DNA of 45,905 bases from a virus (IMGVR_UViG_643348547_000010:1-45905), one strand, 5' to 3'. Positions 1-31,747 are shown, counted from the stretch's first letter. Numbers and translations: made by a program. The notes: generated by a model not told the origin, from the letters alone.

Positions 1-367
1 ATGAAGAAAGTTTTTCTTTGCGCCATCTTAGCCTCCTTAAGCTATCCGGCTATCGCCTCATCATTGCAGGATCAACTCTCTGCTGTCGCAGAAGCGGAAC
101 AGCAAGGTAAAAATGAAGAGCAAAGGCAGCATGACGAATGGGTCGCGGAGCGCAACAGGGAAATCCAGCAAGAGAAGCAACGTCGCGCAAACGCCCAGGC
201 CGCCGCTAACAAAAGAGCGGCAACGGCAGCGGTAAATAAGAAAGCTCGTCAGGATAAACTGGACGCCGAAGCCTCTGCGGATAAAAAACGCGATCAAAGT
301 TATGAAGATGAGCTACGCAGCTTAGAGATTCAGAAACAAAAACTGGCGCTGGCGAAAGAAGAAGCCC
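1..367 (+). pseudogene. Secreted coiled-coil protein gene, 5' portion, interrupted by IS629 (continues at 3948)
   Basis: ORF starts at 1 with signal-peptide-like N-terminus (MKKVFLCAILASLSYPAIA), Lys/Glu/Gln-rich body; reading frame runs into IS629 left end at 368. Confidence 0.6.
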
Positions 368-421
368 TGAACCGCCCCGGGAATCCTGGAGACTAAACTT
401 CCTGAGAAAGAGGTAAACAGG

Positions 422-748
422 ATGACTAAAAATACTCGTTTTTCCCCCGAAGTCCGTCAACGGGCAGTCCGTATGGTTCTGGAAAGTCAGGGCGAATATG
501 ACTCACAATGGGCGACAATTTGTTCCATTGCCCCAAAGATTGGCTGTACACCGGAGACTCTGCGTGTCTGGGTACGCCAGCATGAGCGGGATACCGGAGG
601 CGGTGATGGCGGGCTCACCACCGCTGAACGTCAGCGTCTGAAAGAGCTGGAACGTGAAAATCGTGAACTGCGCCGCAGTAACGATATCCTTCGCCAGGCT
701 TCCGCTTATTTTGCGAAGGCGGAGTTCGACCGCCTCTGGAAAAAGTGA
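422..748 (+). CDS. IS629 OrfA (IS3-family transposase N-terminal HTH protein)
   Basis: 108-aa [25 protein letters not shown]..., near-identical to orfA of the copies at 14287 and 15893-16219. Confidence 0.9.
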
Positions 749-1162
749 TGCCACTGCTGGATAAGCTGCGTAAGCTGTACGGGGTCGGACCGGTATGCAG
801 TGAACTACATATTGCCCCGTCAACGTATTACCACTGTCAGCAACAGCGACATCATCCTGATAAACGCAGTGCCCGTGCGCAGCGCGATGACTGGCTGAAG
901 AAAGAGATACTGCGCGTATACGATGGGAATCATCAGGTATACGGTGTGCGTAAAGTCTGGCGTCAGTTGTTACGGGAAGGAATCAGGGTAGCCAGATGTA
1001 CAGTGGCGCGCCTCATGGCGGTTATGGGACTTGCCGGTGTTCTCCGGGGTAAAAAGGTCCGCACTACCGTCAGCCGGAAAGCCGTTGCCGCAGGCGACCG
1101 CGTAAACCGTCAGTTTGTGGCAGAACGTCCTGACCAGTTGTGGGTGGCTGATTTTACTTACG
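745..1162 (+). pseudogene. IS629 orfB, 5' part, interrupted by group II intron
   Basis: Translation identical to intact OrfB (14610-15500) up to ...QLWVADFTY, then diverges exactly at the intron 5' end. Confidence 0.8.
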
Positions 1163-1818
1163 GTGTGCCCGGAGTTCAGGGCGGGCATGGATGCTTAAAT
1201 GAACCGCGAGTCTGTCTGGAATATTGAACCGGTAACTCACGATGAGAAACCCAACAATCCCACCGGGTGTGACGGTGGAGAACCTGAGCGGCAGTGACCT
1301 GCGGCATGCCCGCAGGGTGATGTAACCCGCTGACAACGGGGATTGAGGCGAGATCACTAAGCCGAGATGATCCTCAAGGTTAAGTACTGAAAGGCTGAAG
1401 AACATGAACCCGTTAATCCGCCTCTGTGGGTTGAAAACGTCACCACGGCCTACGTGATCTGACAGGCCGTGCAGGAGGAACTGGCAGTGATACGTAAGCA
1501 CTGCCGGTCGAAGGTGTTTTGACATGTATGCGAAACACCGGGGCAGCAGCGTCTATCACGCTTGCGTTGCTGACTTCTGCCAACTTGCGGCAAGCAAGGA
1601 TAAAGAGTGCGACGGGCAGCCTCCTCAGTATGCCTGAGTCCAGGCAGGTAAACCGGGGAAGGTCAGCGACGGATGTTAAGGGGGCATGGCTCCGATGACG
1701 CGCTGGCTGGCGGAGCTTCCGTAGTAGTCCGCGATGGGGAAAGCCCATTACATGGCGAAGGGAAGCAGTTTGAATGTGTTTGCGACGTGAATTAACTGAC
1801 CTAACGAGGTGAAGACCT

Positions 1819-3342
1819 TTGATAATCAGCGAAATGCAACGCAAGCTTGCCACATGGGCAGCCACCGATCCGTCCCTACGGATTCAACGGCTGCTGCGTC
1901 TAATAACACAACCAGAATGGCTGGCTGAAGCGGCGCGGATCACGCTTTCATCAAAGGGGGCCCATACCCCCGGCGTTGATGGCGTGAACAAAACAATGCT
2001 ACAGGCCAGACTGGCTGTTGAGCTGCAAATCCTCAGGGATGAATTACTCTCAGGCCACTACCAGCCCTTGCCCGCCAGACGGGTTTACATCCCTAAAAGC
2101 AACGGCAAACTGCGACCACTGGGTATCCCCGCGTTGCGGGATCGTATTGTTCAGCGGGCCATGCTGATGGCGATGGAGCCGATATGGGAGAGTGATTTTC
2201 ATACGCTCTCATATGGCTTCCGGCCTGAGCGCAGTGTCCACCACGCGATCCGCACGGTGAAATTACAGCTCACAGACTGCGGTGAAACCCGGGGACGCTG
2301 GGTGATTGAAGGCGACCTGTCCAGTTACTTCGACACCGTACATCATCGACTGCTGATGAAGGCTGTACGCCGCAGGATCAGTGACGCACGTTTCATGACT
2401 CTGCTGTGGAAAACCATCAAGGCGGGACATATCGATGTCGGTCTCTTTCGGGCGGCCAGTGAAGGTGTGCCACAGGGCGGTGTTATATCGCCGCTATTAT
2501 CGAACATCATGCTGAATGAGTTCGATCAATACCTGCATGAGCGCTACCTGAGCGGGAAAGCCAGAAAAGATCGGTGGTACTGGAATAACAGTATCCAACG
2601 GGGCCGAAGTACGGCGGTCAGAGAAAACTGGCAGTGGAAACCCGCGGTGGCGTACTGCCGCTATGCCGATGATTTTGTCCTCATCGTCAAAGGCACCAAA
2701 GCACAGGCGGAAGCCATCAGGGAGGAGTGTCGGGGTGTGCTCGAAGGCAGTCTGAAACTCAGGCTGAACATGGATAAGACTAAAATCACCCATGTTAATG
2801 ACGGCTTTATCTTTCTGGGGCACAGGATCATTCGCAAACGCAGTCGTTATGGCGAGATGCGAGTGGTCTCAACGATCCCGCAGGAGAAAGCCAGAAACTT
2901 CGCCGCATCGCTGACAGCACTGTTATCAGGCAACTACAGTGAAAGCAAAGTCGATATGGCTGAACAACTCAACCGAAAACTGAAAGGCTGGGCCATGTTC
3001 TATCAGTTCGTTGATTTTAAGGCCAAAGTCTTCAGTTATATCGACCGTGTCGTGTTCTGGAAGCTGGCTCACTGGCTGGCCCGCAAATACCGTACAGGTA
3101 TCGCTTCCCTGATGAGGTGGTGGTGTAAATCACCGAAACCGGGTCAGAGCAAAACGTGGGTTTTATTTGGTAAAACCAATCACGGCAAGCTCAGCGGCGA
3201 AATACTGTACCGGTTGGTGGGGCAAGGCAAGAAGCTGTTCCGCTGGCGGCTACCCGAAGGTAATCCCTATCTGAGGACGGAGACCAGAAACACGTATACA
3301 TCGCGCTTTACAGAAGTGGCAATGGCGTTCGCCAGCATTTAA
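1819..3342 (+). CDS. Group II intron-encoded reverse transcriptase/maturase
   Basis: 507-aa ORF with RT palm motifs (FDTVHHRLL, YADDFVLIV) and C-terminal maturase-like region; no HNH/En motifs visible. Confidence 0.9.
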   Translation: MIISEMQRKLATWAATDPSLRIQRLLRLITQPEWLAEAARITLSSKGAHTPGVDGVNKTMLQARLAVELQILRDELLSGHYQPLPARRVYIPKSNGKLRPLGIPALRDRIVQRAMLMAMEPIWESDFHTLSYGFRPERSVHHAIRTVKLQLTDCGETRGRWVIEGDLSSYFDTVHHRLLMKAVRRRISDARFMTLLWKTIKAGHIDVGLFRAASEGVPQGGVISPLLSNIMLNEFDQYLHERYLSGKARKDRWYWNNSIQRGRSTAVRENWQWKPAVAYCRYADDFVLIVKGTKAQAEAIREECRGVLEGSLKLRLNMDKTKITHVNDGFIFLGHRIIRKRSRYGEMRVVSTIPQEKARNFAASLTALLSGNYSESKVDMAEQLNRKLKGWAMFYQFVDFKAKVFSYIDRVVFWKLAHWLARKYRTGIASLMRWWCKSPKPGQSKTWVLFGKTNHGKLSGEILYRLVGQGKKLFRWRLPEGNPYLRTETRNTYTSRFTEVAMAFASI

Positions 3343-3347
3343 ATGGA

Positions 3348-3381
3348 GAGCCGGATGCGCTGAAAGGTGCACGTCCGGTTC
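3348..3381 (+). ncRNA. Group II intron domain V
   Basis: GAGCCGGATGCGCTGAAAGGTGCACGTCCGGTTC: 34-nt hairpin with AGC triad and GNRA-type loop, located just after the IEP stop and followed by a short domain VI-like hairpin. Confidence 0.8.
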
Positions 3382-3404
3382 GGGGAGGAGAGGCAGGGAA
3401 ATAG

Positions 3405-3905
<501 letters not shown>

Positions 3906-3947
3906 GTTCACAGATAAAACACTCTCCAGGAAACCCGGGGCGGTTCA

Positions 3948-4124
3948 GCCCGCGTTAAGCGAGAAAACGAATTTATCGATCAGGAACTGAAGCACAAAGC
4001 TGCGCAAACCGATGTGGTGCAATCTGAAGCTGACGCAAACAGAAATATGACTGAAGGCGGTCGCGATCTGATGAAAAGCGTGGGCAAAGCAGAAGAGAAC
4101 AAATCGGACAGCTGGTTTAATTAA
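3948..4124 (+). pseudogene. Secreted coiled-coil protein gene, 3' portion (downstream of IS629)
   Basis: Removing the IS and one GCCC copy joins 1-367 to this segment in frame (...KEEARVKRENEFIDQELKHK...SDSWFN stop at 4122-4124). Confidence 0.55.
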
Positions 4125-6422: not shown

Positions 6423-6449
6423 CCCGCAATATTTTGCGGGCTTTTTTTT
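6423..6449. terminator. GC hairpin plus T8 run abutting the tailspike stop codon
   Basis: CCCGCAATATTTTGCGGGCTTTTTTTT; the U-run is on the plus strand, so it is a better plus-strand than minus-strand terminator. Confidence 0.4.
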
Positions 6450-9400
6450 AACGTTCTTCCAGAGACTGAACCCGCTCTTTTATCTTATCCATTTCTCTGC
6501 GCTGCCATGCTGCCTCGATATAGAATAAGAGATCAGGTCTGACCCCCCATCTAGATCCTGCTGGCGTTATTTCAACGCGCTCAATGATGTCTTCTATTAC
6601 CATCACTGGATTATCATCCTCATCAACAATGATGCTCCCGTCATTATCAGTCAGCGGCATTTCCCTTTGGCCAGTAATGACGTCATCATATACTGCGGGA
6701 TAATCGTCATAGCAAAGAAAGGCATAGCGGCATGTTGTGCTTTCTTCTTCCATGAGTCCGTGAGAAATAAGAACATCACGAAGTTGCTGCGCGATTACAC
6801 CATGATGTATCCTCGCCCCTTCTTCCCCCTTTATAGCGACAGCGTTCAGCCATTTATAAGCGATATACCTGACGTCACCCCAGGCATCCAGCAATGCTTC
6901 GTCAGGAGAGACCGGCTCTGTCTTTAATGTTCCGTCACTGGTAACCACAGGATTGGAGCCAAGATAAACTGTCGAGAACCTGTTTCCCGGACCACCAAGA
7001 GCATTTACATTATCAAGATAAGGTTTAACATCTCCGTTCTCAAAAAGATGTTCGAGTGCGTTATATACCGCGCGACGTGGAGTACTGCTTCCGGAACCAT
7101 GCAACGTTATCATTGCACCATCTGCTGAAGACGTTGTTTCACCGCCGCTAACGATTAATCTCTGAGCGGTAACATCATCAGACGGTACTTTCTTCGCAAT
7201 AATGGCGTAATTACCCTCAAGTTTGACTTCCGCGCGAACTTGTCCTGATGTACCTGCATGGACAGTCAGTGACTGGACGGCAACATCATCTGTGAAATCA
7301 ACGGGTACAGGAACCGTCCTCACGCCTGACGTCGACATAAAAGTAGGAAGCGTTCTGTTAGGAGTGGCTCCGTAGACAAAATCCCTTGAAACAAATTCTT
7401 CCTGTTTAATTTTCACCCTGAAACAATACAAATCAGCCGGGTGACCATCGTGAACATAAGGATATTTTCTGTTGTTATCCCCTATGCTCCATGGGTTTAG
7501 AAAGTCTTCCCCACCGAAAATGTAGTACAGCCAGTTGTCTTTGATACAAACTGAACCAACACCAACCGCAGAGTTAACTATTCCGCCCTGATAAATCTGA
7601 TCAGTAACATTAACCCACTCTACATTATCCAGACTCCACTCATTGACGTTAACTCTGGTCATAAATGTTCTTGGATAATTTCCTGCATAACGGTTATCAG
7701 GTTCTCCTCCTTCCCACTCACCAAATGCGCGCTCACTGCCAAAAATAATCAGCTCATCGCCAACTTTGGCAAAAGGAAGGTTTGAGTGATGAACATTATT
7801 TGGGAAGCGAAGAGAATTCCATGATGTACCTAAATCAGAGCTTCTGTGCAATGAACTACCGGGTTGAGTACTTAATGTCCCCCTGGTCGTCAGATACAGA
7901 ATGCCATCATAATATTTTACACATGGCTCAGATGCATTCGCCTCATATTCTACAGGTATGCGTCTGCGAACAAAGCTACCAGGAGAACCGAAAGCATCAG
8001 AGAAATAGAGTATCCCAAGCTCGCGTGGACCAATATCACCATTATGGTAGCCAACAGCAAAACTGTTATCGCTAATCGTCGCAAAACTGTGAATCTCAGT
8101 AACAGGAGTGCTTCCGTCAACAAAAGAAGGAATAGTTCCAAGACTGGTTTTTCTCCATGGTGACGAGTGAAATGATGTGCCAAAACTCCAGTATCTACCC
8201 TCGTTATTCTGATCCACATCCTGGGTATTTTGCGTCGTAACTGTAAAGGTATTTTTATCAATAACAGTAGTCACCGTCATATTCCCGGTAACACCTGTAA
8301 CACCAGAGTTTGAGAAGTTGACAAAATCACCAGCAAATAATCCGTGATCAGTAATGCGAATATAAGCGACTTGCTGATTTGCTGCTTTCGTTATACCACC
8401 ATAAACGCGAAGGCTGCGACTCATTGGGCGATCCCACAACTCTGCAACCTGCAGTTTATTTCCTCTCACGGTCCGCGTCTCAATTACAGCAAAAAGGCGA
8501 TTTCTGACAACCCCCATACTCATGCAGTGATAGTTAACTGTGGGATAGTTTTCATGTAAATCTGTAAGCCATTCCGGCGTTGTCCAGGTCTTCCCGTCAT
8601 CTCCTGAGCGAACCCATGCAACATGGAGGTTATTTACACCATGGCGGTCTCCAGCCATAAAAGGCGCATAGATGACATTGTCATATACAAACGTTTTATC
8701 CTGCGTCCAGGCGTTGTACCACGGTGTATCTGTAATTTTAAATAACTCTCCCTGGATAAAATCTTCAGAAGCATAAAAAAGAGGCTGGCCCGGTATTCTC
8801 TCAAATAAAAAACGAGCATTTTTAAATCGACTGACATCCGGAAGAGTTGATACTTTAAAAGTAAGCCCTAATCCGTCAATTTTATAACCTGGAGATGAGG
8901 CTTCAAGGCACGCGCTTATTGCAGTGGAATCGTCATTTATACCATCACCAACAGCTCCAAAATCTTTGGGGCTAATAGCATCACGCATTTTATCCTGGAA
9001 CGTTCGGTACACAGCCCCAGAACCATACTGAATAAACCAACCAAAACCACCAACAACTCCGGCGATTGCAGCATCGACATAATTACGCATTGAGCGATTA
9101 TTTACAGCGTCCTGCTCAAATGATGGATCTGCAAGGTTAGAAATTTTGTTTTGCTTTGCATCGTAATATTTTGCAAGCAAAGATGGTTTCATCAATGCAC
9201 GTCTGAACCACCCAAAACATTGCTGGATCAGCATCGTCAGGTAGTCAAAGGCATCTTCATGCACTTCGGGGAAAAATTTTCCCTGATTGCGAAGGTCTGT
9301 GTCCTGCACTACATCAAGCACACGATCTATCGTAATTCGCCATCCAGTAGCAAGCGGAGACGGAAGAACCACAGAACCGCCACTATAAGTGCCCGCCACA

Positions 9401-9567
9401 GTTACCGTATAACCGGTATCCAGGACCAATTCTGTTACGTTCCCGTTCAGGTCAGACACCTGAACAACCAGGTCTGATTTTCTGAAAATTCGAAAAGTAT
9501 ACGGAAACGATGTCGTAACGCCGTTACCGGTGTATTCGTTGTGGTCAACTTCGGTTGAGACCGTCAT
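6448..9567 (-). CDS. Tail fibre/tailspike: T7 gp17-like N-terminal adaptor, glycosidase-like body with Asp-box motifs, C-terminal intramolecular chaperone (peptidase S74-like)
   Basis: N-terminus MTVSTEVDHNEYTGNGVTTSFPYTF... and NLADPSFEQDAVNNRS resemble tail-fibre N-domains; DFGAVGDGINDDSTAI beta-helix-type motif; Asp-boxes SGDDGKTW and SSDLGTSW; C-terminal ...SDGTLKTEP...HHGVIAQQL... chaperone-like. Confidence 0.8.
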   Translation of the reverse strand: MTVSTEVDHNEYTGNGVTTSFPYTFRIFRKSDLVVQVSDLNGNVTELVLDTGYTVTVAGTYSGGSVVLPSPLATGWRITIDRVLDVVQDTDLRNQGKFFPEVHEDAFDYLTMLIQQCFGWFRRALMKPSLLAKYYDAKQNKISNLADPSFEQDAVNNRSMRNYVDAAIAGVVGGFGWFIQYGSGAVYRTFQDKMRDAISPKDFGAVGDGINDDSTAISACLEASSPGYKIDGLGLTFKVSTLPDVSRFKNARFLFERIPGQPLFYASEDFIQGELFKITDTPWYNAWTQDKTFVYDNVIYAPFMAGDRHGVNNLHVAWVRSGDDGKTWTTPEWLTDLHENYPTVNYHCMSMGVVRNRLFAVIETRTVRGNKLQVAELWDRPMSRSLRVYGGITKAANQQVAYIRITDHGLFAGDFVNFSNSGVTGVTGNMTVTTVIDKNTFTVTTQNTQDVDQNNEGRYWSFGTSFHSSPWRKTSLGTIPSFVDGSTPVTEIHSFATISDNSFAVGYHNGDIGPRELGILYFSDAFGSPGSFVRRRIPVEYEANASEPCVKYYDGILYLTTRGTLSTQPGSSLHRSSDLGTSWNSLRFPNNVHHSNLPFAKVGDELIIFGSERAFGEWEGGEPDNRYAGNYPRTFMTRVNVNEWSLDNVEWVNVTDQIYQGGIVNSAVGVGSVCIKDNWLYYIFGGEDFLNPWSIGDNNRKYPYVHDGHPADLYCFRVKIKQEEFVSRDFVYGATPNRTLPTFMSTSGVRTVPVPVDFTDDVAVQSLTVHAGTSGQVRAEVKLEGNYAIIAKKVPSDDVTAQRLIVSGGETTSSADGAMITLHGSGSSTPRRAVYNALEHLFENGDVKPYLDNVNALGGPGNRFSTVYLGSNPVVTSDGTLKTEPVSPDEALLDAWGDVRYIAYKWLNAVAIKGEEGARIHHGVIAQQLRDVLISHGLMEEESTTCRYAFLCYDDYPAVYDDVITGQREMPLTDNDGSIIVDEDDNPVMVIEDIIERVEITPAGSRWGVRPDLLFYIEAAWQRREMDKIKERVQSLEER

Positions 9568-9670
9568 GTTAAATCTCCAGATAGTCGCAGCACCCGTTGC
9601 GCCGCATATCTGGTTATTCTATTACCTGAAAAACCATATATGGATAAAAAGACTATAAATACCAATAGAT

Positions 9671-9687
9671 ATTACCTTTCGGGTAAT
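9671..9687. promoter_or_regulatory. Operator-like 17-bp palindrome (site A)
   Basis: ATTACCTTTCGGGTAAT, intergenic, upstream of 9763 gene. Confidence 0.5.
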
Positions 9688-9762
9688 TTGCAAAACGTGC
9701 TGGATAGCAAACAAATTATTTGTTACTGTATAAACATACAGTTATTGCATGGAGAAGATAAG

Positions 9763-10020
9763 ATGCAGCAGTATCACTATCCACTGGAAGACGGATTTAC
9801 CGAAAGGATTCACACGCCGGGAGGCGTCAGGTCACTGGTGGAGGGATCGCACTTGATGAAATTACTCCGGGATCTCGATAAGGATGGATTTAATGTCGAT
9901 GGCCCACTTGCCGAACTGACTGCACTGATTAACTACGTCACCAGCTCACAGATGTCTATGCAGGATCTGCAAACACATCTCGACTATTGTGCCGAACAAT
10001 TACGAAAACAAACCAGATAA
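9763..10020 (+). CDS. Small protein paralogous to the C-terminal domain of the antirepressor at 10338-10994
   Basis: Start at internal ATG with GGAGAAG RBS; about 45 percent identity by eye to the last 80 aa of the AntA-like protein (shared ...IH-P-GV..L.E.S.LM.LL..L..DG..V.G..AELT....Y...LQTH..Y). Confidence 0.5.
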   Translation: MQQYHYPLEDGFTERIHTPGGVRSLVEGSHLMKLLRDLDKDGFNVDGPLAELTALINYVTSSQMSMQDLQTHLDYCAEQLRKQTR

Positions 10021-10023
10021 GGT

Positions 10024-10052
10024 TTGCAATTACCAAATAGAGTGCTTATATT
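10024..10052 (+). promoter_or_regulatory. Sigma70-like promoter TTGCAA-N17-TATATT
   Basis: Hexamers at 10024-10029 and 10047-10052; operator site B begins 27 bp after the -35 start. Confidence 0.45.
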
Positions 10053-10067
10053 TACCTTTGCGGTAAA
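10051..10067. promoter_or_regulatory. Operator-like 17-bp palindrome (site B)
   Basis: TTTACCTTTGCGGTAAA overlapping the -10/+1 of the promoter above. Confidence 0.5.
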
Positions 10068-10180
10068 TTTACATCGCACTCCTCTTGTGCCATAGTAATC
10101 GGGCACTGGCAAAATCCAGTGCCGGGATTGGTCTCCCGGATTACTAAGTGGCGCATACCACGCCAGACGTGGTTTTTTTA
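10059..10180 (+). ncRNA. Candidate structured leader or small RNA upstream of antirepressor gene
   Basis: About 120 nt between promoter/operator and an intrinsic terminator; contains stem-loops CACTGG...CCAGTG and CCGGGA...TCCCGG; no convincing ORF (track ORF 10119-10310 starts at GTG with no RBS). Confidence 0.3.
10158..10180 (+). terminator. Intrinsic terminator
   Basis: CCACGCCAGACGTGG followed by T7. Confidence 0.6.
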
Positions 10181-10337
10181 TGCGTATAGCACAGTCATGC
10201 CAGAATTATGGTGGGCTGAATGGGGGTCCGAAAGGACGCCGGTACCACTTAGGCCGGTAAGACCAACTCCGTTCAGTTCACCACCATCTGATTGGTCTCA
10301 GCGGTGGTGATGTAATTCGCTAAGTGGAGACGCCATC

Positions 10338-10994
10338 ATGAACGCTCAACTCATCCCCGTATTCAACGGCACTATCGCCAACGAAACCACTCTTCTCGTT
10401 AATGCTCGCGATTTACATACTTTTCTTGGGGTAGGTAAACGCTTTGCATCGTGGATTACAGAACGCATTGCTGAATATGGTTTCGTTGAAAATCAGGACT
10501 ATATTTTGGTTTCCCCAAATCGGGAAATCAAAGGTCGAGGAGGCGATCGCCGTAGCAAAGACTATCACCTCACCCTCGATACGGCCAAAGAAACTGCGAT
10601 GGTCGAGCGCAACGAAAAAGGCCGCCAGATACGCCGATACTTCATTGAATGCGAGAAACGTTTAAGACAACAAGAAACAAAGGTGGAGAAGGTCTTGTCA
10701 GGCTTCATGCCCGCCATTATGGAGGCGATCAAACTGGAAGACAAAAAAGAATACAGTGCCCCACTGAAGCCAGGCTACCGTAGCCTGATTCATTCGCCGT
10801 CTGGTGTTCTCGGCCTGACGGAGAACTCACTGCTGATGAATCTGCTGAACCAGTTGCAGGAAGACGGGCACGATGTATCGGGCGCGGCGGCGGAACTGAC
10901 CACCATGTTCTGCTACATCGTCGGTGTGAGCAAATGCCTGCGTGATATCCAGACGCACGCGGAGTACATCAACGACAAGGCAGGATTCTTCTGA
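10338..10994 (+). CDS. Antirepressor, AntA-like N-terminal domain plus C-terminal domain
   Basis: N-terminal DLHTFLGVGKRFASWITERIAEYGFVENQDYIL pattern typical of AntA/AntB-type antirepressors; RBS GGAG upstream. Confidence 0.7.
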   Translation: MNAQLIPVFNGTIANETTLLVNARDLHTFLGVGKRFASWITERIAEYGFVENQDYILVSPNREIKGRGGDRRSKDYHLTLDTAKETAMVERNEKGRQIRRYFIECEKRLRQQETKVEKVLSGFMPAIMEAIKLEDKKEYSAPLKPGYRSLIHSPSGVLGLTENSLLMNLLNQLQEDGHDVSGAAAELTTMFCYIVGVSKCLRDIQTHAEYINDKAGFF

Positions 10995-11039
10995 CAGAAC
11001 GGCGGCACAGGGATGTGCCTTTAAATAATTCTGTACAGA

Positions 11040-11068
11040 TTGCAGACTGGGGGTGAATAGCGTACTAT
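11040..11068 (+). promoter_or_regulatory. Sigma70-like promoter TTGCAG-N17-TACTAT
   Basis: Hexamers at 11040-11045 and 11063-11068; site C begins 27 bp after the -35 start. Confidence 0.4.
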
Positions 11069-11083
11069 TACCTCACGGGTGAT
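11067..11083. promoter_or_regulatory. Operator-like 17-bp palindrome (site C)
   Basis: ATTACCTCACGGGTGAT. Confidence 0.45.
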
Positions 11084-11119
11084 CCATAGCGATTAGGCAC
11101 CGATACAGGAGGAGCCCAC

Positions 11120-11152
11120 ATGAGAAAATTTGACGAGTACGAAGGCGTTTAA
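11120..11152 (+). other. Mini-ORF (10 codons, MRKFDEYEGV) with strong Shine-Dalgarno, between two operator sites
   Basis: AGGAGGA at 11107-11113, ATG at 11120, stop TAA at 11150-11152. Confidence 0.25.
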
Positions 11153-11167
11153 CATTCGGATAGTTCA

Positions 11168-11184
11168 TTTACCCTAATGGTAAA
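11168..11184. promoter_or_regulatory. Operator-like 17-bp palindrome (site D)
   Basis: TTTACCCTAATGGTAAA. Confidence 0.5.
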
Positions 11185-11223
11185 TCCCGCTTAAAGAAGC
11201 ATCTATATATTATGAGGTGATGT

Positions 11224-11859
11224 ATGCCACAACAACTGCTGAATCCGGCAAAGGTAACTGAGGTTTTCGCTCATCTGAACGAAACTCCAGACAACCGCGC
11301 CCTGTATTCAGAGTTAGTGAACGGCAACGATGTCACATCTGATGTCAAAGGCGTTTCTCTGGCTCCTGGATACCGCGTTGTCCGTGTAGACGATCGTAAG
11401 AAAGGCGAGATTCCACAGGCGCACTTTGAACTGTCATTGATAAATGACCTCACCGAAGAGGTAGTGTATTACAATCGTGTCATTATCCAGCCTGACAGCT
11501 ATCTTAACTGCCGTCCTGTCACGCAGATATTGGTATGGAGAACCCAGAAGCCTAAGCATCGTGCTGTGCTTCATGATTTCGCCGGCATCATCTTCATGAA
11601 CTACCTCTTGGAACGGTACGATATCATCGTGTCAGATCGCAACCAGACTCATGAAGGCATGTCGTTCTGGCAGGCTCGCATGTATGACGCACTGGAACTT
11701 GGCCTCCACCTCTATGGTTACGACATGATGACATGCGAGCTGATAGAGATGAATAACGAGGAAGAGCTTGAGAAAGGTGAAACCTGGTTGTGGGGTGATG
11801 CGGAAAACTTCCAAAACAGATTGGCCATAATTTCAAAGCATAAGCTGCCAATAAAATAG
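11224..11859 (+). CDS. Hypothetical protein (accessory gene in antirepressor island)
   Basis: 211-aa ORF with RBS (GAGGTGA), followed by a strong terminator; no family recognised. Confidence 0.6.
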   Translation: MPQQLLNPAKVTEVFAHLNETPDNRALYSELVNGNDVTSDVKGVSLAPGYRVVRVDDRKKGEIPQAHFELSLINDLTEEVVYYNRVIIQPDSYLNCRPVTQILVWRTQKPKHRAVLHDFAGIIFMNYLLERYDIIVSDRNQTHEGMSFWQARMYDALELGLHLYGYDMMTCELIEMNNEEELEKGETWLWGDAENFQNRLAIISKHKLPIK

Positions 11860-11865
11860 TTCTTT

Positions 11866-11888
11866 AAGCCCGCGGCGCGGGCTTTTTT
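11866..11888 (+). terminator. Intrinsic terminator
   Basis: AAGCCCGCGGCGCGGGCTTTTTT. Confidence 0.7.
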
Positions 11889-11961
11889 GTGTCTGCGGAT
11901 TCCCGCCCGGGTGGCGGTGGCATTCGTTAAAAACAAGGCCGCGAAAGCGGCCTGTGACATG

Positions 11962-12342
11962 TCACGCAACGCAATTATTACCGCGCCATGTAACATTTTT
12001 AATAATCTTATCAGCACCAAACTCAACGTAAACAGAGCAACTGAAATGGAGTGTATAACCGCCATCAGTTGTTGCGTATGTGTTTGAATATATAGTATTA
12101 CCAATTAGATTAGACGTAGTATTATACGTTGTGGTTTGTGGTACGTTATAACTACCAGAGCTTGAGTAAACATACACTCTGTTTCCATCTGGAGATGTAA
12201 GCTCTCCCTGAGGATACCCCCACTGCTGAACCATTGCGTCTATACTCTGCCCGCGCCACGTAAGCATATTTCTTTCAAACTGTGCAGCTGACTGGCATCC
12301 AACGAGAAGCATAAATCCAAAAATCAAAAATACTTTTCTCAT
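11962..12342 (-). CDS. Lipoprotein (possible superinfection-exclusion type accessory gene)
   Basis: Start at MRKVFLIFGFMLLVGCQSAA (lipobox LLVGC); Ser/Thr/Asn-rich mature part. Confidence 0.55.
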   Translation of the reverse strand: MRKVFLIFGFMLLVGCQSAAQFERNMLTWRGQSIDAMVQQWGYPQGELTSPDGNRVYVYSSSGSYNVPQTTTYNTTSNLIGNTIYSNTYATTDGGYTLHFSCSVYVEFGADKIIKNVTWRGNNCVA

Positions 12343-12389: not shown

Positions 12390-12578
12390 TTATTTTATTA
12401 TTCTTCCGAACAATACAATTCCGAATACTACAAAGCCGAACCATGCCGCTGCACGCAACAGAGATTCCAATTGAAACCCATTTTTATCAAAATGTATGAA
12501 TAGCATAAAAACGCTGCACATATTAGTACAATAAAAGTTATTTGAACCATCATATCTCCTTTTATTGCGGAGTGACAT
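12390..12578 (-). CDS. Small hypothetical protein with C-terminal hydrophobic segment
   Basis: 62-aa ORF only; overlaps the end of the upstream gene. Confidence 0.3.
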   Translation of the reverse strand: MSLRNKRRYDGSNNFYCTNMCSVFMLFIHFDKNGFQLESLLRAAAWFGFVVFGIVLFGRIIK

Positions 12579-14232
12579 CCTGTGGTCGCCACCAGTATGT
12601 CTGGTTAAACTCTTTCTTCGAACGTTGCTCCATTTTACGCAAATAGCCTGGTGAAAAATACTCCTGCATCTGGTTAAAGATCATGTGATCGAGAGCCGCC
12701 TTCAAGTACCAGAGATTCGCACCAGGCATCAAACCTTTCCCCAGCTTCACCAGATCACCACCAGTCTGCTCACTCTTCCCTTCCACAGCATTTAACGGTA
12801 TGCCCTGAGCAATCTTCACTACGTCATCAACCAGACCAGCTACCGGGCCAAGCATCGACGCCAGCGCGCCGCTTCCGTACCTAGTGTGATCTGACAATAA
12901 AAAGTCACCGTAAAGGCCAAGACCACCACCTTTCAGTAGAGCACCAAGCCAGAATTTTGCGGCATCTTCTCCTGTCATCTCTCGAGGATTACGACCAGAC
13001 GCAAGGTCGTTAAGTTGCTGCGACAAAGCGCCAAGAATGGTCGTACTGGCAATAAACGTCGCAATATATGCCGCACGCCCACCAGCAGACGGCATACCCA
13101 TAGCGCGTGACCAGTGACGCATAACAACCGAGATAGGGAACGATTTAAACAGGAAAACACTTCTCGTTAATTCACCTTTCCATGTTCCACGCTGAATACC
13201 AGAACCGGTTATCAGTTGCTCACGTGCTCCCGGTGTAATAACAGCCATATCAACTTCTTCAGTTACGGCACCGAGCAGTTTACGCATTGCCTCAAATTTC
13301 ACGCGTTCAGGCTCACCAAGATGTTTAACTGCTGAATCAGGGATACGCATAATGCTTTCCGGTGTCAGCATCGTATTATTACCGTTCCCCCAGTCCTCCT
13401 GTTTCGCCAGCTTCCATACGCTCCAGTCTGTGTCAGTAATCCCTTTGCTTTTCAGGATACGAAAATCAGAGTCATCGAGGCTACGAAGGTCTGGTGTCCG
13501 TGACACTACTTCTCCCAGGCTTCCCATCATGGTTACGCCATAGGCGCGCTTGTGCGCATCTGACCATGCTGTAAGCCCACTGGCACGCATTACCGCCGTT
13601 GCCGCCCAACGAGACACTGACGGCCCCATATTATCCATCGCCCAGCGGTTAACGCTGCCAAGTAGAGATTCCATCGCCAGACCAGCGCGGCGCGCCCGCG
13701 CAAGTTCTGTACGGTTCGTTGGGTCCATAGCTTCAAGCTGGTTGCGGAATAACTGGTTCATTGGAAGGTTGGTAACCTTCGCAGACAGATACATGGTTCC
13801 AAGATCAGAGAACGATGACAGCAACGCGGATCCGAGTCTGCTGGCAACCAGCCAGTTGCGGATATTGTCAGACCATCGCGCGATGTGCGGATTCGCTACA
13901 GGCTGTGTCTTTCCGGAAATAAAGTTGTACAGATTCTCTGTGTTGTTCGCCAGCCGCTCGACTTTACCGGTTTTACTCGGGTTAGCTGTTGCCGTTTCTG
14001 CCTTCACCTGATCAAGAAGAGAGCGGAAAACATGATCGGGGTTTGGGCCATATGTTTCCACCAGTGCAATATCTTTACTGATACCTTCCAGGTGACCGAC
14101 CATGATTTCCCATAGAGAGCGATCGCCATAAAGTTGCTGATATTGCAGATAGGAATCTGCATCTTTGAAATGTATCTGTCGTGATGCATTACCACGGTTA
14201 GCACGTGCGCCGGAAATTCGCATTCCGGTATC
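12562..14232 (-). pseudogene. Internal virion (ejection/core) protein gene, C-terminal portion, separated from its 5' part by IS629 copies
   Basis: 557 codons of phage sequence downstream of IS629 left end; the track ORF (12562-14325) starts inside the IS. Confidence 0.7.
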
Positions 14233-14286
14233 TGAACCGCCCCGGGAATCCTGGAGACTAAACTTCCTGAGAAAGAGGTAAACAGG

Positions 14287-14613
14287 ATGACTAAAAATAC
14301 TCGTTTTTCCCCCGAAGTCCGTCAACGGGCAGTCCGTATGGTTCTGGAAAGTCAGAGCGAATATGACTCACAATGGGCGACAATTTGTTCCATTGCTCCA
14401 AAGATTGGCTGTACGCCGGAGACTCTGCGTGTCTGGGTTCGCCAGCATGAGCGGGATACCGGGGGCGGTGATGGAGGGCTCACCACCGCTGAACGTCAGC
14501 GTCTGAAAGAGCTGGAACGTGAAAATCGTGAACTGCGCCGCAGTAACGATATCCTTCGCCAGGCTTCCGCTTATTTTGCGAAGGCGGAGTTCGACCGCCT
14601 CTGGAAAAAATGA
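14287..14613 (+). CDS. IS629 OrfA
   Basis: 108-aa ORF, same protein as 422-748 apart from one residue. Confidence 0.9.
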
Positions 14614-15500
14614 TGCCACTGCTGGATAAGCTGCGTGAGCAGTACGGGGTCGGACCGCTATGCAGCGAACTGCATATTGCCCCGTCAACGTATTACCACT
14701 GTCAGCAACAGCGACATCATCCGGATAAACGCAGTGCCCGTGCGCAGCGCGATGACTGGCTGAAGAAAGAGATACAGCGCGTATACGATGAAAATCACAA
14801 GGTATACGGTGTGCGTAAAGTCTGGCGTCAGTTGTTACGGGAAGGTATCAGAGTGGCCAGATGCACTGTGGCACGTCTCATGGCGGTTATGGGACTTGCC
14901 GGTGTTCTCCGGGGTAAAAAGGTCCGTACGACCATCAGCCGGAAAGCCGTTGCCGCAGGCGACCGCGTAAACCGTCAGTTCGTGGCAGAACGACCTGACC
15001 AGCTGTGGGTGGCTGATTTTACTTACGTCAGCACATGGCGGGGCTTCGTCTATGTGGCGTTCATCATTGATGTGTTTGCCGGATACATCGTGGGGTGGCG
15101 GGTCTCATCGTCCATGGAAACGACATTCGTGCTGGATGCACTGGAGCAGGCGTTATGGGCCCGTCGACCGTCCGGCACGGTCCATCACAGTGATAAAGGT
15201 TCTCAGTATGTATCGCTGGCCTACACACAGCGGCTTAAGGAAGCCGGATTACTGGCATCAACAGGAAGTACAGGCGACTCGTATGACAACGCGATGGCGG
15301 AGAGCATCAATGGTCTTTACAAAGCGGAGGTAATACACCGTAAGAGCTGGAAAAACCGTGCAGAAGTGGAACTGGCCACACTCACGTGGGTGGACTGGTA
15401 TAACAATCGACGATTGCTGGAAAGGCTGGGCCATACTCCTCCGGCAGAAGCAGAAAAAGCTTATTATGCTTCCATCGGAAACGATGATCTGGCAGCCTGA
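14610..15500 (+). CDS. IS629 OrfB (DDE transposase catalytic part)
   Basis: 296-aa ORF overlapping orfA in the -1 frame as in IS3-family elements. Confidence 0.9.
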
Positions 15501-15542
15501 GTTCACAGATAAAACACTCTCCAGGAAACCCGGGGCGGTTCA

Positions 15543-15896
15543 GTCGCCTGCGGCAACGGCTTTCCGGCTGATGGTCGTACGGACCTTTTTACCCCGGAGA
15601 ACACCGGCAAGTCCCATAACCGCCATGAGACGTGCCACAGTGCATCTGGCCACTCTGATACCTTCCCGTAACAACTGACGCCAGACTTTACGCACACCGT
15701 ATACCTTGTGATTTTCATCGTATACGCGCTGTATCTCTTTCTTCAGCCAGTCATCGCGCTGCGCACGGGCACTGCGTTTATCCGGATGATGTCGCTGTTG
15801 CTGACAGTGGTAATACGTTGACGGGGCAATATGCAGTTCGCTGCATAGCGGTCCGACCCCGTACTGCTCACGCAGCTTATCCAGCAGTGGCATCAT
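15543..15896 (-). pseudogene. IS629 orfB, truncated
   Basis: Encodes first 117 aa of OrfB then runs into the neighbouring IS end. Confidence 0.8.
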
Positions 15897-16219
15897 TTTT
15901 TCCAGAGGCGGTCGAACTCCGCCTTCGCAAAATAAGCGGAAGCCTGGCGAAGGATATCGTTACTGCGGCGCAGTTCACGATTTTCACGTTCCAGCTCTTT
16001 CAGACGCTGACGTTCAGCGGTGGTGAGCCCTCCATCACCGCCCCCGGTATCCCGCTCATGCTGGCGAACCCAGACACGCAGAGTCTCCGGCGTACAGCCA
16101 GTCTTTGGAGCAATGGAACAAATTGTCGCCCATTGTGAGTCATATTCGCTCTGACTTTCCAGAACCATACGGACTGCCCGTTGACGGACTTCGGGGGAAA
16201 AACGAGTATTTTTAGTCAT
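15893..16219 (-). CDS. IS629 OrfA (in truncated copy)
   Basis: 108-aa ORF matching the other orfA copies. Confidence 0.85.
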
Positions 16220-16273
16220 CCTGTTTACCTCTTTCTCAGGAAGTTTAGTCTCCAGGATTCCCGGGGCGGTTCA

Positions 16274-17076
16274 GTAAGCTTATTCAGCCCACCAGTAGCG
16301 ATCGTGTTATAAGCCTCTCCAAGAAATGAAGACAACTCGGCATCGTTCATCAGTTGTCCATCGGCTCGGATATAATATTTGCGATCCAGCTTACCTATAA
16401 CATCGCTAACCCACTTATCCTTTGATACTGCCCCAACCTTTTCCATAGAATGATGTTGAGGGATCCCCCAGTTTTCGAGATAGCCAATGTCCCCACCAGC
16501 ATCATTAAACCGGCGGCGCAGCAGCTCTGTAACTTCTCTCCACGCCTTAGCACCGTTTCTTGCTTTAGCATTGCCAGTATTTTGCCCCCGCATTTCATAT
16601 ACCAGGTCACGTACGCCCGCTTCATCTTCAAACAGACCAAAAAAGCGAGGATCAACTGCTTCGAATGCCTCCTGCAATTGACTCAATGCATAATCACGGG
16701 TGGCTTTTGTTCTGGATTCAACAGAGAGGAAATTAGATTTACCGTCTGCATTAAAAGCTATAGTACGGTTAAGAGCGCCAAGTTTCCCATCAGCCCCTTG
16801 ATAGCTATTGATAAATTTATCCAATCTCTGACGTGCGGCTATAGTGAGAGCCACACGACGTTTCTTTAATGTCGCTTCTCGCTGTAATTCTTCAGATGCC
16901 AATTGTGCTGCACGATACAACCGTTCTGATTCGGAAAGTTGTCGCCACGACATCGGGTCATCACGAGCAATGGAGCGCATATTTCGATAAATGCGGTCTT
17001 CAATGTTCTGTATTTCTCGCGCCGTTAACGTGCGCTGCGCCGCCTGCTGGACCGCTTGTATACATTCCTGTCTCAT
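16274..17076 (-). pseudogene. Internal virion (ejection/core) protein gene, N-terminal portion, truncated by IS629
   Basis: Track ORF 16225-17076 reads from phage sequence into the IS end (last 16 residues IS-derived). Confidence 0.7.
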
Positions 17077-18884: not shown

Positions 18885-21394
18885 TGCGGAATATCTCCGG
18901 AGAATCTCTGACGCTTCTGTGTCAGATTAAGAACAACGGGAGAACCATCATCTTTCAGCAGATAACCAGTACCAAGTTTCACCAGGTACTGACTATCGCC
19001 GTAACTTTGCAAACCATACTGACCAGGCGGTGTTTTTATCCCGGAGCCGACAACTTGTTCATTCCAAGCCTGATTAACCTGCTTATCGAATTGCTCTGCA
19101 GACATTCCCCACGGCAAAAGGACATTCCCCATTCCGTTATAGTCATGCACGCCACCTGTAGCTACGTTAACAGCCTGTTTCCAGACATCATTGTCAATTT
19201 CGCCTGATACCACGCCTTTTTTCGCCATCACACCAGCGTAATAATCCTTTGCGATCTCGTATGCCATTGATGCGCCCTGAGCGTCACCAGCAAATGCATC
19301 CTTCACCATGTCAGAAAACTCAAGGCGAAGATCAGCATCTTTAGGCATCGGAATACCTTTCGCATCATCAGTACCTTTACGAGCCGCCGCGCCAGCAAGA
19401 ATTGTCTGCGCAGCGGTTTCAGGAGACACGGAAACATCCGGATTAAACCAGTTTTTTTCTGCCAAAATACCACCAGGCTTATCCATCAGTATCCCGGCAA
19501 CGGCAGCAGATGGAGCGTTGGCACTGATCTGCTGTAGTGCTGACATATACACCTGCCCACCACCAGTGCTCTGCCTGATGGTATCGAGATATGCTGCCTG
19601 TTGGGAAACTGGAGCATCACGAAAGAAAACACCGATCTGATTGGCCTCGTCTTTGGAAAAGAACGTCAGTGGAGTGCCATATGACTTAGCAAGGTCACTG
19701 ACCTGAGCGGCACGCAAGGCAACGCTCTGTCCAAAGTTATCCTTATTGCTCATGTCGATAGGCTTTGCCTGTCCGGAGGCAAGAGAGAACTGCACAGGAT
19801 CCGACTGCCGCTGCTTTATCACCTGATTTGCAGCCGAAACAACGTTGTCATAAAGAGTTGCGCGTGCCGCATACCCCTCCCCTGTATCACCAGTATCCGG
19901 GCGTAATTGCTCAACATATGCTGTAATGCTGCTTGTCGGCATGTTGCGGAAAGAGCCTATATACTGTCCGGCGATCTGCGTATTCTTAAACTCGGTATAT
20001 CGCAGGTTTCCTTCTCTGACTCCATAAGCTGCAATAAAATCATCCTCACCAGGTGGGTTAGGAAATTCAATGCCACGCATATACGCAGCCGTCGCATCGC
20101 GAACCCGGCTGTCGAGCATCGTTTTATATTCAGCCTGCTGTTGTCTGGCTAGTGCATCAGTCTGTCGCAACACGCTGGCCTGATCTGATTCACTTAAAGC
20201 ATCGAACCAGGCTATACCGGTATAACGTTTATTTTTTGTCGGTAGCTGAGAAAGCCCCAGCGCAGCACTAACACCTGCAGTTAACTGCTGATCACTGTAT
20301 GGCTGGCTACCGTTTTCATGATGGATAATGGCTGCACAAAGCGCCTTCAGGGTATCAGGATTTGATGCATCGAGAGGCTCATCAGCAGAAACGCCAAGTT
20401 GTTCGCACACTGCTTTGATATACGACATAGTGTCATTTTTATCAGTAGGCGGTGCCCAGCGATTAATTATCTCGCTGACGGTATCAATACCCTGCCGCTG
20501 ATACGACATCAGGTTCCGCCCTAATGCACGAATACCGTGTTCAGGGGTTTCGAATTTGGCAAAGCGACCATCATCACCAGTCTGCCCAACCCACGGATTA
20601 GTTTTGCTGTATTCAAGATTGCCGGGGTTATTGTTGCGTATACCGCGGGTACGATCGGAAGAGCCACTATCTGCTACAGCACGGCGATAACCAGCAGCAG
20701 TATCGCTTAACTCGCCGTTTTGCTGTCTTACCTGAAGATAGTTTGCTCCAATAGCATTTTGAGCAGTTGCTTTTGCTGTTGCTTCTTTAAACTCGATTTT
20801 CTTGGCCTGGATTTGCTCGTCACTCCAGCCATGTGCAATGCCGTAATCCTCAATTTGCTGGAAAGTTTGCTTATTAGCCAATACGTATGCGGCGTTGTCG
20901 CCATACAATGCTGCGGCATTTTTACCATTGTTCAGCAGCGTAGCCTGAAACTGGCCTTCTTCGTAGGCATTTATTTGCCCTATCTCGTGCCGCCCGGCCT
21001 GCGTAGTGAACTGAATGCGCTGCTGCTGCGCCTGCTGCATGAAAGCATTACGAGCCTGTTCATCCGGCAGCGACATAGCCAGTTGTTCGACCTGAGCATC
21101 AAACTGCTGCGTATACTCCTGACCTTTTCCAATAGCATTTTTCCCTTTCAGGTTAAGCAAACCTGTTTCAGGGTTATTCAGCAGATCGCTGCTTATCTGG
21201 CTTAAGCTAAGAGAAGCATCCTGAGCCATAGCAACATTCGCACGCTGTTTTGCCTGCGCAATAATACCTGCATATTGCTCTGCAACATCGCCAAGTACAT
21301 CACCGACATTTGGTGTCTGAAACGATGAGAATCCCTGCGTCGAAATCCCTCTGCTCTGAACCTGACGGCCCGATGTTGTTGGTACAACTGGCAT
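18881..21394 (-). CDS. Internal virion core protein (T7 gp15-like position) with a conserved globular domain
   Basis: 837-aa ORF; gene order after gp14-like gene; contains GIRNNNPGNLEY motif region. Confidence 0.7.
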   Translation of the reverse strand: MPVVPTTSGRQVQSRGISTQGFSSFQTPNVGDVLGDVAEQYAGIIAQAKQRANVAMAQDASLSLSQISSDLLNNPETGLLNLKGKNAIGKGQEYTQQFDAQVEQLAMSLPDEQARNAFMQQAQQQRIQFTTQAGRHEIGQINAYEEGQFQATLLNNGKNAAALYGDNAAYVLANKQTFQQIEDYGIAHGWSDEQIQAKKIEFKEATAKATAQNAIGANYLQVRQQNGELSDTAAGYRRAVADSGSSDRTRGIRNNNPGNLEYSKTNPWVGQTGDDGRFAKFETPEHGIRALGRNLMSYQRQGIDTVSEIINRWAPPTDKNDTMSYIKAVCEQLGVSADEPLDASNPDTLKALCAAIIHHENGSQPYSDQQLTAGVSAALGLSQLPTKNKRYTGIAWFDALSESDQASVLRQTDALARQQQAEYKTMLDSRVRDATAAYMRGIEFPNPPGEDDFIAAYGVREGNLRYTEFKNTQIAGQYIGSFRNMPTSSITAYVEQLRPDTGDTGEGYAARATLYDNVVSAANQVIKQRQSDPVQFSLASGQAKPIDMSNKDNFGQSVALRAAQVSDLAKSYGTPLTFFSKDEANQIGVFFRDAPVSQQAAYLDTIRQSTGGGQVYMSALQQISANAPSAAVAGILMDKPGGILAEKNWFNPDVSVSPETAAQTILAGAAARKGTDDAKGIPMPKDADLRLEFSDMVKDAFAGDAQGASMAYEIAKDYYAGVMAKKGVVSGEIDNDVWKQAVNVATGGVHDYNGMGNVLLPWGMSAEQFDKQVNQAWNEQVVGSGIKTPPGQYGLQSYGDSQYLVKLGTGYLLKDDGSPVVLNLTQKRQRFSGDIPQ

Positions 21395-31091: not shown

Positions 31092-31134
31092 GAATCACGC
31101 CTAAGGACCGTGATGCCAGAAGTTCCAGGGGCTT

Positions 31135-31735: not shown

Positions 31736-31747
31736 TTATTTAAAAAT

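Follow-up and report, generated by a model that had tools for sequence, protein, structure and literature searches.

A probable antirepression region encoding two antirepressors and a cargo gene in an epsilon15-like prophage of Escherichia coli

How can a prophage be induced when its repressor lacks a cleavage domain? The question is raised by an integrated podovirus of the epsilon15/phiV10 type (Uetakevirus) that fills a viral stretch of 45,905 nucleotides (IMGVR_UViG_643348547_000010:1-45905, hereafter the window; identical to Escherichia coli IAI39 (O7:K1) NC_011750.1:2747065-2792969), and in particular by an island at 9568-11890 with three plus-strand genes. This island is bounded by the minus-strand tailspike gene (6448-9567) and by minus-strand virion genes (from 12562), and both the list of open reading frames (ORFs) and the RefSeq annotation give it genes at 9763-10020 (85 amino acids, aa), 10338-10994 (218 aa) and 11224-11859 (211 aa). 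We consider it quite probable that the island serves the prophage as its antirepression (second immunity) region, in which two antirepressor genes are followed by a cargo gene. An earlier note on this DNA, made from the sequence alone, had already delimited the island correctly, with its three plus-strand genes between the tailspike and the virion operon, and had recognized it as an antirepressor module of the immunity I kind. The gene order of the prophage is the same as in epsilon15, and the phage records nearest to the island are those of phiv142-3, phiV10, TL-2011b and ZX5; a P22-like background was ruled out, the relatives being Uetakevirus phages (phiV10, phiv142-3, epsilon15).

The presumed target of both antirepressors is the prophage repressor Rep, a protein of 194 aa encoded on the plus strand at 40186-40770, which matches the “Repressor” chain of Salmonella phage SPC32H in PDB (5D50_A, E 4e-42) over its full length (aa 1-190). 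A Pfam search of Rep found HTH_3 at aa 106-147 and a weak second HTH-like match at aa 21-61, and no Peptidase_S24 or other cleavage domain, as the earlier note had supposed. The likely operator of Rep is the palindrome TTACC-N5-GGTAA, of which the window holds 14 sites (at most one mismatch) as against 0.91 ± 1.06 in shuffled sequences, with 0 of 100 shuffles reaching 14. Operator pairs flank the repressor gene (40068/40116 and 40828/40890), other sites stand before other transcription units (30678, 33889/33907, 37730/37792 and 39731), and the island has sites at 9672, 10052, 11068 (one mismatch) and 11169, such that each of its genes is preceded by the palindrome of the immunity region, as had been noted before. 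The palindrome is found at equivalent positions in phiV10, phiv142-3, TL-2011b, Tyrion and epsilon15, and the GenBank record of epsilon15 labels the same palindromes as repressor-binding sites. Its half-sites are unchanged in all Uetakevirus relatives examined, including epsilon15 with a Rep only 42% identical, and so offer no variation to set against repressor type. By annotation 12 of the 14 sites are intergenic, and the remaining two, at 33889/33907, fall in the gene for the small terminase subunit, within its N-terminus as annotated. The equivalents of this last pair in epsilon15 and phiv142-3 are upstream of the start of that gene; its TTG start at 33967 is probably mis-set, the true start being an ATG near 33885.

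The first gene of the island (9763-10020, plus strand) codes for an orthologue of the small antirepressor Ant of SPC32H, itself a Uetakevirus with a Rep-Ant system of known structure (PDB 5D50, 5D4Z). The 85-aa product matches the “Anti-repressor protein” of SPC32H (5D50_E) with E 4.1e-47 over 83 aa and is 88% identical to the SPC32H ant product by tblastn. The SPC32H gene holds the equivalent genomic place, with the tailspike on one side and the last virion gene on the other, and the two genes share the order of elements upstream: a Rep operator, TTGCA, a LexA box and the Shine-Dalgarno sequence. In the window the predicted operator, O1 (ATATTACCTTTCGGGTAATTT, 9669-9689), abuts the -35-like TTGCAA of the small-ant promoter and may also serve the divergent tailspike promoter; it is kept in SPC32H, and its equivalent in epsilon15 (19895-19911) is annotated “protein_bind repressor”. 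The predicted LexA (SOS) box, TACTGTATAAACATACAGTT (9724-9743, plus strand), lies 20 base pairs (bp) 5' of the small-ant start codon; its core CTGTATAAACATACAG (9726-9741) is a perfect CTGT-N8-ACAG, and 17 of its 20 positions match the E. coli consensus. The LexA box and O1 are both kept in 6 of 6 relatives examined (including phiV10, phiv142-3, TL-2011b, epsilon15 and Tyrion), in which only spacer or neighbouring bases vary, and the box is also present in SPC32H. CTGT-N8-ACAG has 3 matches in the window where 0.76 would be expected; those at 26665 and 31207 are probably due to chance, as the AT-rich spacer is found only at 9726.

LexA-controlled antirepressors of Salmonella phages inactivate non-cleaved repressors by protein-protein contact, according to a review (PMC7380047) that cites the SPC32H study of Kim and Ryu 2013, and the Ant tetramer binds two Rep dimers, breaking the Rep tetramer (PMC9638917). 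By homology with SPC32H, host LexA would occupy the box 5' of the small ant gene of our prophage; DNA damage would remove LexA, and the Ant then made would bind the non-cleavable Rep and strip it from its TTACC-N5-GGTAA operators across the genome. SPC32H Ant is reportedly made in the lysogen while Rep is present, and a point mutation of the LexA box is said to render SPC32N constitutively lytic. The 85-aa Ant is thus the likely SOS trigger of induction. The system departs from that of SPC32H in several respects: identity between the Rep proteins is no higher than about 42-45% (the 42% was obtained with epsilon15 Rep); the window adds to the small ant gene a second antirepressor, an RNA leader and a cargo gene (described below), all of which SPC32H lacks; and the host of the window is E. 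coli K1, with a prophage disrupted by insertion sequence (IS) elements.

The earlier note leads to a different model, in which the AntA-like protein of the second gene would start induction and the main repressor would shut all three genes through the palindrome, in a layout like that of P22 immI. The AntA domain is real (see below), operators do stand before each gene, and the position of the island matches the P22 gene order, in which immI lies between the internal-protein genes and the tailspike. However, the SOS box precedes the 85-aa gene and not the AntA gene, and it is the 85-aa protein that is orthologous to a characterized antirepressor. Moreover, epsilon15 and SPC32H have no large Ant, SPC32H being reportedly SOS-inducible by way of small Ant alone, and the AntA gene is placed behind a C4 RNA leader in a window without arc, mnt or sar. 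An antirepressor fully repressed by its own target also cannot start induction. We regard this model as highly improbable; the choice of the island as the best candidate for the trigger was sound, but within it the LexA box and the SPC32H orthology point to the 85-aa Ant.

The second gene (10338-10994, plus strand) encodes the large Ant, a chimeric protein of 218 aa that combines an AntA N-terminal domain (aa 21-92) with an SPC32H-Ant-like C-terminal domain (aa ~137-213). A profile search recovered AntA as predicted by the earlier note (Pfam PF08346, E 3.6e-27, 95.2 bits against a cut-off of 27), and aa 137-213 match 5D50_E with E 4.3e-14. The small Ant is a paralogue of this C-terminal part (about 40% identity over 78 aa), and both the 85-aa and the 218-aa proteins match phrog_450. 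Among Uetakevirus relatives the C-terminal module, 75-83% identical, is joined to three different N-terminal domains: AntA in the window and phiv142-3; Bro-N in TL-2011b gp46, Tyrion gp20 (60% identical) and the frameshift-truncated phiV10 gp23; and a P22-type Ant N-terminal region in TL-2011b gp42, which is located behind an Arc-like gene and a sar RNA. Conversely, the AntA domain is joined to unrelated C-termini in about 800 phage records, the full-length architecture being found in only two. On the simplest reading, the C-terminal domain would confer specificity for the Rep family and the N-terminal domains would be interchangeable. The 31060-35520 region of TL-2011b contains three antirepressor genes with the common C-terminal domain (gp47, the small one, gp46 and gp42), with a gene for a YafO-type toxin between antirepressor genes.

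How the large ant gene is controlled is indicated by the 317 bp that separate it from the small ant gene, within which Rfam detects RNA elements, all on the plus strand, that the earlier note did not see. The first is an IsrK-like short RNA (10103-10180; RF01394 isrK at 10103-10179, 67.7 bits, gathering score 50, model positions 1-77), which carries a b1 site TTGGTCT (10128-10134) and an a1 site CTAAGTGG (10144-10151) and ends in an intrinsic terminator (10157-10180, with a stem at 10157-10173 plus a T run). A c4-a1b1 motif (RF03163, 10090-10142) overlaps it with 39.9 bits, under the gathering score of 46.7. The second element is a C4-type antisense RNA (10204-10288; RF01695 C4, 61.2 bits, gathering score 45), with a hairpin loop a' of sequence CCACTTAG (10245-10252) and a bulge b' of sequence AGACCAA (10260-10266). 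Its target region on the ant mRNA (10292-10329) comprises a b2 site TTGGTCT in a hairpin loop (10292-10298) and an a2 site CTAAGTGG (10320-10327). The end of a2 falls within the Shine-Dalgarno sequence of large ant, GGAG (10326-10329), which stands 8 nucleotides before the ATG. Loop a' is complementary over exactly 8 nucleotides to both copies of its site, and b' over exactly 7 nucleotides to both copies of TTGGTCT; in the minimum free energy fold of the read-through leader (z = -5.0), b1 and a1 are paired with b' and a' in cis. The candidate leader promoter has a -35 TTTACA (10068-10073) and an extended -10 TG-n-CATAGT (CATAGT at 10091-10096); the -35 is abutted by the predicted Rep operator O2 (TATTTACCTTTGCGGTAAATT, 10049-10069), whose site at 10052 is 272 bp 5' of the large-ant start codon with the structured RNA leader between. 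The block of operator, -35 and -10 is kept in phiV10, TL-2011b, Tyrion and phiv142-3.

In these same four phages an IsrK and C4 leader also precedes the large antirepressor gene, in TL-2011b that of the Bro-N fusion gp46; it was not found in epsilon15. Close relatives fall into three specificity types in which changes in the C4 loops are compensated in the targets. In the window and phiv142-3, a' is CCACUUAG with a1/a2 CUAAGUGG, and b' is AGACCAA with b1/b2 UUGGUCU; in phiV10 and TL-2011b, a' is CCUUUUAG with a1/a2 CUAAAAGG, and b' is ACGCCAA with b1/b2 UUGGCGU; and in Tyrion, a' is CCUUUGUAG with a2 CUACAAAGG and a1 CUACAGAGG, and b' is AGACCAA with b1/b2 UUGGUCU. A pattern scan of IMG/VR yielded at least 120 further leaders, and we compared 96 non-identical ones, which hold 21 a' loops and 8 b' types. 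Counting complements of at least 7 nucleotides and using a C4 of a different type as the control, we found the complement of a' downstream of C4 in 89% of the 96 leaders (11% in the control) and that of b' in 100% (14%); upstream, the corresponding values were 72% (13%) for a' and 92% (14%) for b'. These compensatory changes support the predicted pairing between C4 and its targets. In these leaders the median distance from the end of the downstream a site to the next ATG is 10 nucleotides, which would in general place the site on the ribosome-binding site. The IsrK/C4 leader is not rare: of 5426 complete genomes of E. coli, about 432 (about 8%) have it.

Based on these elements, transcription of the leader would start at about 10103, and most transcripts would end at the terminator to give the IsrK-like RNA, with read-through transcripts yielding C4 and the ant mRNA. 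Pairing of C4 with b2 and a2 would occlude the ant ribosome-binding site, as in phage P1 immI. Having a copy of each target site, the IsrK-like RNA could draw C4 away from the mRNA, and as a decoy it would free the ribosome-binding site. The large Ant would then provide a second, SOS-independent route of derepression, or an anti-immunity function on infection. By its elements the control of large ant is of the P1 immI or the Gifsy-1 IsrK/AnrP type and not of the P22 type. The likeness to P22 immI seen by the earlier note holds for the position of the island and for its role, that of an accessory, second region of immunity with an antirepressor gene, but not for its content: the ORF list and the RefSeq annotation, with three genes only, show no arc or mnt gene in the island, and an Rfam scan of the window did not find the sar RNA of P22 immI (RF00262), whereas the relative TL-2011b has a true Arc/sar/Ant module, with sar, joined to the same C-terminal domain.

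P1 Ant expression is under the control of C1 and of the C4 RNA (PMC8201110; PMC8546580). The P1/P7 immI region (c4-icd-ant1/ant2) resembles the present leader in having a C4-family RNA processed from the antirepressor leader (here such processing is predicted from sequence), loops a' and b' that pair with two ribosome-binding-site targets and with a duplicate upstream pair, a main-repressor operator at the operon promoter and many specificity types, comparable to P1/P7 heteroimmunity. The window differs from it in lacking an icd-like ORF, in having a2 on the ant Shine-Dalgarno itself and an intrinsic terminator between a1/b1 and C4, in its antirepressor being a chimera of AntA and an SPC32H-Ant-like domain, and in belonging to an integrated podovirus rather than a plasmid myovirus. 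With the isrK-orf45-anrP-isrJ locus of Gifsy-1 in Salmonella (Hershko-Shalev et al. 2016, PMC4825925) it shares an IsrK RNA with its own terminator and a full-length Rfam match, read-through into the antirepressor mRNA, a stable RNA downstream (STnc1160 there, C4 here) and an antirepressor that is translationally silent unless relieved, which in our case would follow from the predicted pairing. In Gifsy-1, IsrK supplied in trans raised anrP translation more than 100-fold, and STnc1160 is a stable processed RNA downstream of IsrK and complementary to it (PMC4825925); the proposed action of the IsrK-like RNA as a decoy fits these experiments by analogy. The Gifsy-1 locus differs from the window in its published model, which invokes structure switching and translational coupling to orf45, and in its downstream consequence, AntQ toxicity in a lambdoid prophage. 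No isrJ match was found by Rfam in the window, inspection of the leader by eye and in the ORF list found no conserved orf45-like or icd-like reading frame, and no ORF with a Shine-Dalgarno sequence was seen by eye between C4 and ant.

What Rep itself does at the antirepressor promoters is a further question. The earlier note proposed that the palindrome would tie the antirepressors to the main repressor or to a dedicated regulator; the operators are indeed present, but their presence alone is no proof of repression. If the small Ant can be induced while Rep is present, as reported for SPC32H, O1 cannot mediate complete repression. Candidate early promoters have operator pairs 62 bp apart (centre to centre), with one site over the predicted start and one near -61; the pair 40828/40890, which has a TTGACA-17-CATAAT promoter, is one such case and 37730/37792 is another, and both (40828-40904 and 37730-37806) show the 62-bp spacing. 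Only one operator, abutting a -35-like hexamer, is seen at each of three other places, namely the promoter of small ant (TTGCAA), that of the leader (TTTACA) and the rep side at 40116 (TTGCTT). By their layout, one repressor seems to be served by two distinct kinds of operator arrangement. This difference is one argument for a reading in which Rep at O1 and O2 (about -44) acts positively or neutrally and thereby keeps C4 RNA supplied in the lysogen; another is that Ant is reportedly inducible in SPC32H lysogens despite O1, and lambda CI, which activates PRM from OR2, offers an analogy. Yet an operator overlapping a -35 usually represses, and the promoters were assigned by eye and by consensus scans, whose matches are in themselves no evidence of function. 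The scans were at background level (8 found against 5.9 expected), which makes the small-ant and 211-aa promoters uncertain. We hold a positive or neutral action of Rep to be unlikely. Partial repression by Rep may, on the other hand, set up positive feedback once some Ant has been made.

Several points weigh against the scheme of a LexA-controlled small Ant and an RNA-controlled large Ant acting on Rep. For this prophage it is derived from sequence analysis, with the details of LexA control in SPC32H taken from secondary citations. A Rep operator stands at each of the two antirepressor promoters, and full repression there would bar induction by the loss of LexA; with one site placed next to the -35, the sign of Rep regulation could be either. 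The C-terminal domain of large Ant is only about 40% identical to small Ant, such that its binding to Rep is not assured, and in phiV10 the frameshift in gp23 (19646-20230) falls within the Ant-like C-terminal domain, a truncation which suggests that the second antirepressor is dispensable. The authors of the Gifsy-1 study explain IsrK by the upstream orf45 and structural switching and not by titration of a C4-like RNA; in our leaders a conserved icd- or orf45-like peptide across C4 was rejected, as the window and phiV10, with their different C4 types, do not have the same open frame when compared by eye. Finally, IS3-family elements (14236-16269) split the gp17-like virion structural gene of the prophage into 12562-14235 and 16270-17076, with an IS3 copy at 14287-15500 and a partial IS3411 at 15543-16219; because this gene is split the prophage is defective, infectious particles are probably beyond it, and selection on the switch may have been relaxed.

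It has also to be asked whether Rep is the target of large Ant at all. The protein could instead be an anti-immunity or crosstalk weapon, produced by an infecting phage or once induction has occurred and directed at the repressors of prophages in the same cell or of a resident relative, with the C4 type setting a second immunity specificity as in P1/P7. The variously combined C4 types, at least 21 for a' and 8 for b', resemble diversifying immunity specificities, the phiV10 homologue is annotated “putative anti-immunity protein”, and the AntA domain is also found in Stx phages. Antirepressors acting in trans are documented in Gifsy phages, according to a passage of PMC7380047 that refers to PMC3121763. 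However, the C-terminal domain is paralogous to the Rep-binding small Ant and stays constant as N-terminal domains are swapped in phages with this Rep, a constancy which points to this Rep family as the target of large Ant. We regard the crosstalk function as possible but less likely than not; it and action on Rep are not mutually exclusive. An equally tentative and more sweeping proposal is that the SPC32H-Ant fold serves as a portable Rep-targeting warhead, deployed alone under LexA or fused to interchangeable N-terminal domains under IsrK/C4 or Arc/sar, such that one repressor might integrate several induction signals; in this proposal IsrK would be a sponge for C4, unifying the P1 c4 and Gifsy-1 models, and the GNAT-like cargo protein discussed below could be a new anti-defence factor of the acetyltransferase type.

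Every component of the region falls within described families (SPC32H Rep/Ant, C4/IsrK control and the AntA domain), and no individual mechanism is new. Modestly new are the use of two differently controlled antirepressors (three in TL-2011b) that have a single Rep-targeting domain in common, the proposed role of IsrK-type RNAs as decoys that capture RNAs of the C4 type, and a gene of the orphan kind with a predicted GNAT-like fold under putative Rep control. The region would explain how induction can come about in a widespread group of podovirus prophages, found in E. coli and Salmonella, whose repressor is not cleavable, and it brings together three literatures that are usually kept separate, those on SPC32H Ant, P1 c4 and Gifsy-1 IsrK. 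It also furnishes the testable idea that IsrK-type RNAs titrate C4-type antisense RNAs. In addition, it gives functions to genes that RefSeq labels “hypothetical” and holds a lesson for annotation: a small “hypothetical” gene is a characterized antirepressor, and the long 5' leader of an “Ant” gene is a functional RNA.

The third gene of the island (11224-11859, plus strand) encodes a 211-aa protein for which a divergent fold of the GNAT (acyl-CoA N-acyltransferase) kind is predicted. It had no match in Pfam, NCBIfam or PADLOC and no meaningful sequence match in PDB; the unnamed phrog_1349 is the sole family that it matches, and tblastn against phage records gave one weak match (30% identity). 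Its homologues form a family of 94 proteins in Enterobacterales. The earlier note's statement that it belongs to no recognizable family stands at the level of sequence but not at that of predicted structure: an AlphaFold2 model built from an alignment of 34 sequences (pLDDT 84.6, pTM 0.80) contains the GNAT core fold, and the structure that it matches best is the GNAT-like domain of ICL2/Rv1916, which is regulatory and not catalytic. Unlike the GNAT superfamily at large, the protein has no profile match to the GNAT Pfam families and bears an extra N-terminal helical segment. The acetyl-CoA motif Q/R-x-x-G-x-G/A was not evident in its beta4-alpha3 loop (alignment, by eye); this loop reads RTQKPKHR, with no glycines, and a conserved Q141-T-x-x-G145 opens the next helix. 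As the canonical motif is not evident, catalysis is uncertain.

Upstream of the 211-aa gene are two further predicted Rep operators: O3 (CTATTACCTCACGGGTGATCC, 11065-11085; one mismatch), overlapping a weak candidate -10 TACTAT (11063-11068) of a promoter that was assigned by eye and is below the promoter-scan threshold, and O4 (CATTTACCCTAATGGTAAATC, 11166-11186), 40 bp 5' of the gene. Given O3 and O4, the lysogen probably keeps the gene silent until derepression allows its expression. An intrinsic terminator ends the island (11866-11890, plus strand; AAGCCCGCGGCGCGGGCTT plus a T run), and the gene with O3/O4 and this strong terminator appears to form a self-contained, swappable cassette: of the 5426 complete genomes of E. 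coli, 13 have the gene in this slot, and other small genes fill the same slot in relatives. Such turnover, together with the fold and with an expression that the two operators suggest to be limited to derepression, would suit an active acetyltransferase with an anti-defence or host-takeover role, for which the GNAT-type anti-CRISPR AcrVA5 and the GNAT-fold Mom protein of phage Mu are precedents. Inert cargo or a CoA-binding regulator is the alternative; against an active enzyme speak the acetyl-CoA motif not being evident, the non-catalytic nature of the best structural match, the failure to match PADLOC and the homologues in Erwinia amylovora and Photorhabdus, which are lone chromosomal genes outside prophages. 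An active enzyme of this kind thus seems to us rather doubtful. The Erwinia homologue is situated between the genes of an HU/IHF-type DNA-binding protein and a glutathione peroxidase, and the Photorhabdus homologue adjoins LuxR-type regulators and an RtxA toxin gene. Between O3 and O4 a ten-codon ORF, MRKFDEYEGV (11121-11153, plus strand), has a good Shine-Dalgarno sequence by eye; it may encode a leader peptide, or else be a remnant.

Around the island, a second cargo gene of opposite strand lies between it and the virion genes: a small lipoprotein gene (11962-12342, minus strand) with the lipobox LLVGC and its own terminator (11953-11936), whose product belongs to phrog_3716, a family without known function. 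On the other side, the tailspike gene (6448-9567, minus strand) encodes a full K1 endosialidase, with an End_beta_propel domain (E 1.7e-232) and an S74 chaperone domain; a K1 endosialidase tailspike is thus borne by an epsilon15-like prophage in a K1 strain. In the left flank of the prophage (1-4124), a DUF5384 gene is broken by an IS3 element that is itself broken by a group II intron, the parts of this nested insertion being ltrA at 1834-3342 and the Rfam Intron_gpII match at 3346-3432.

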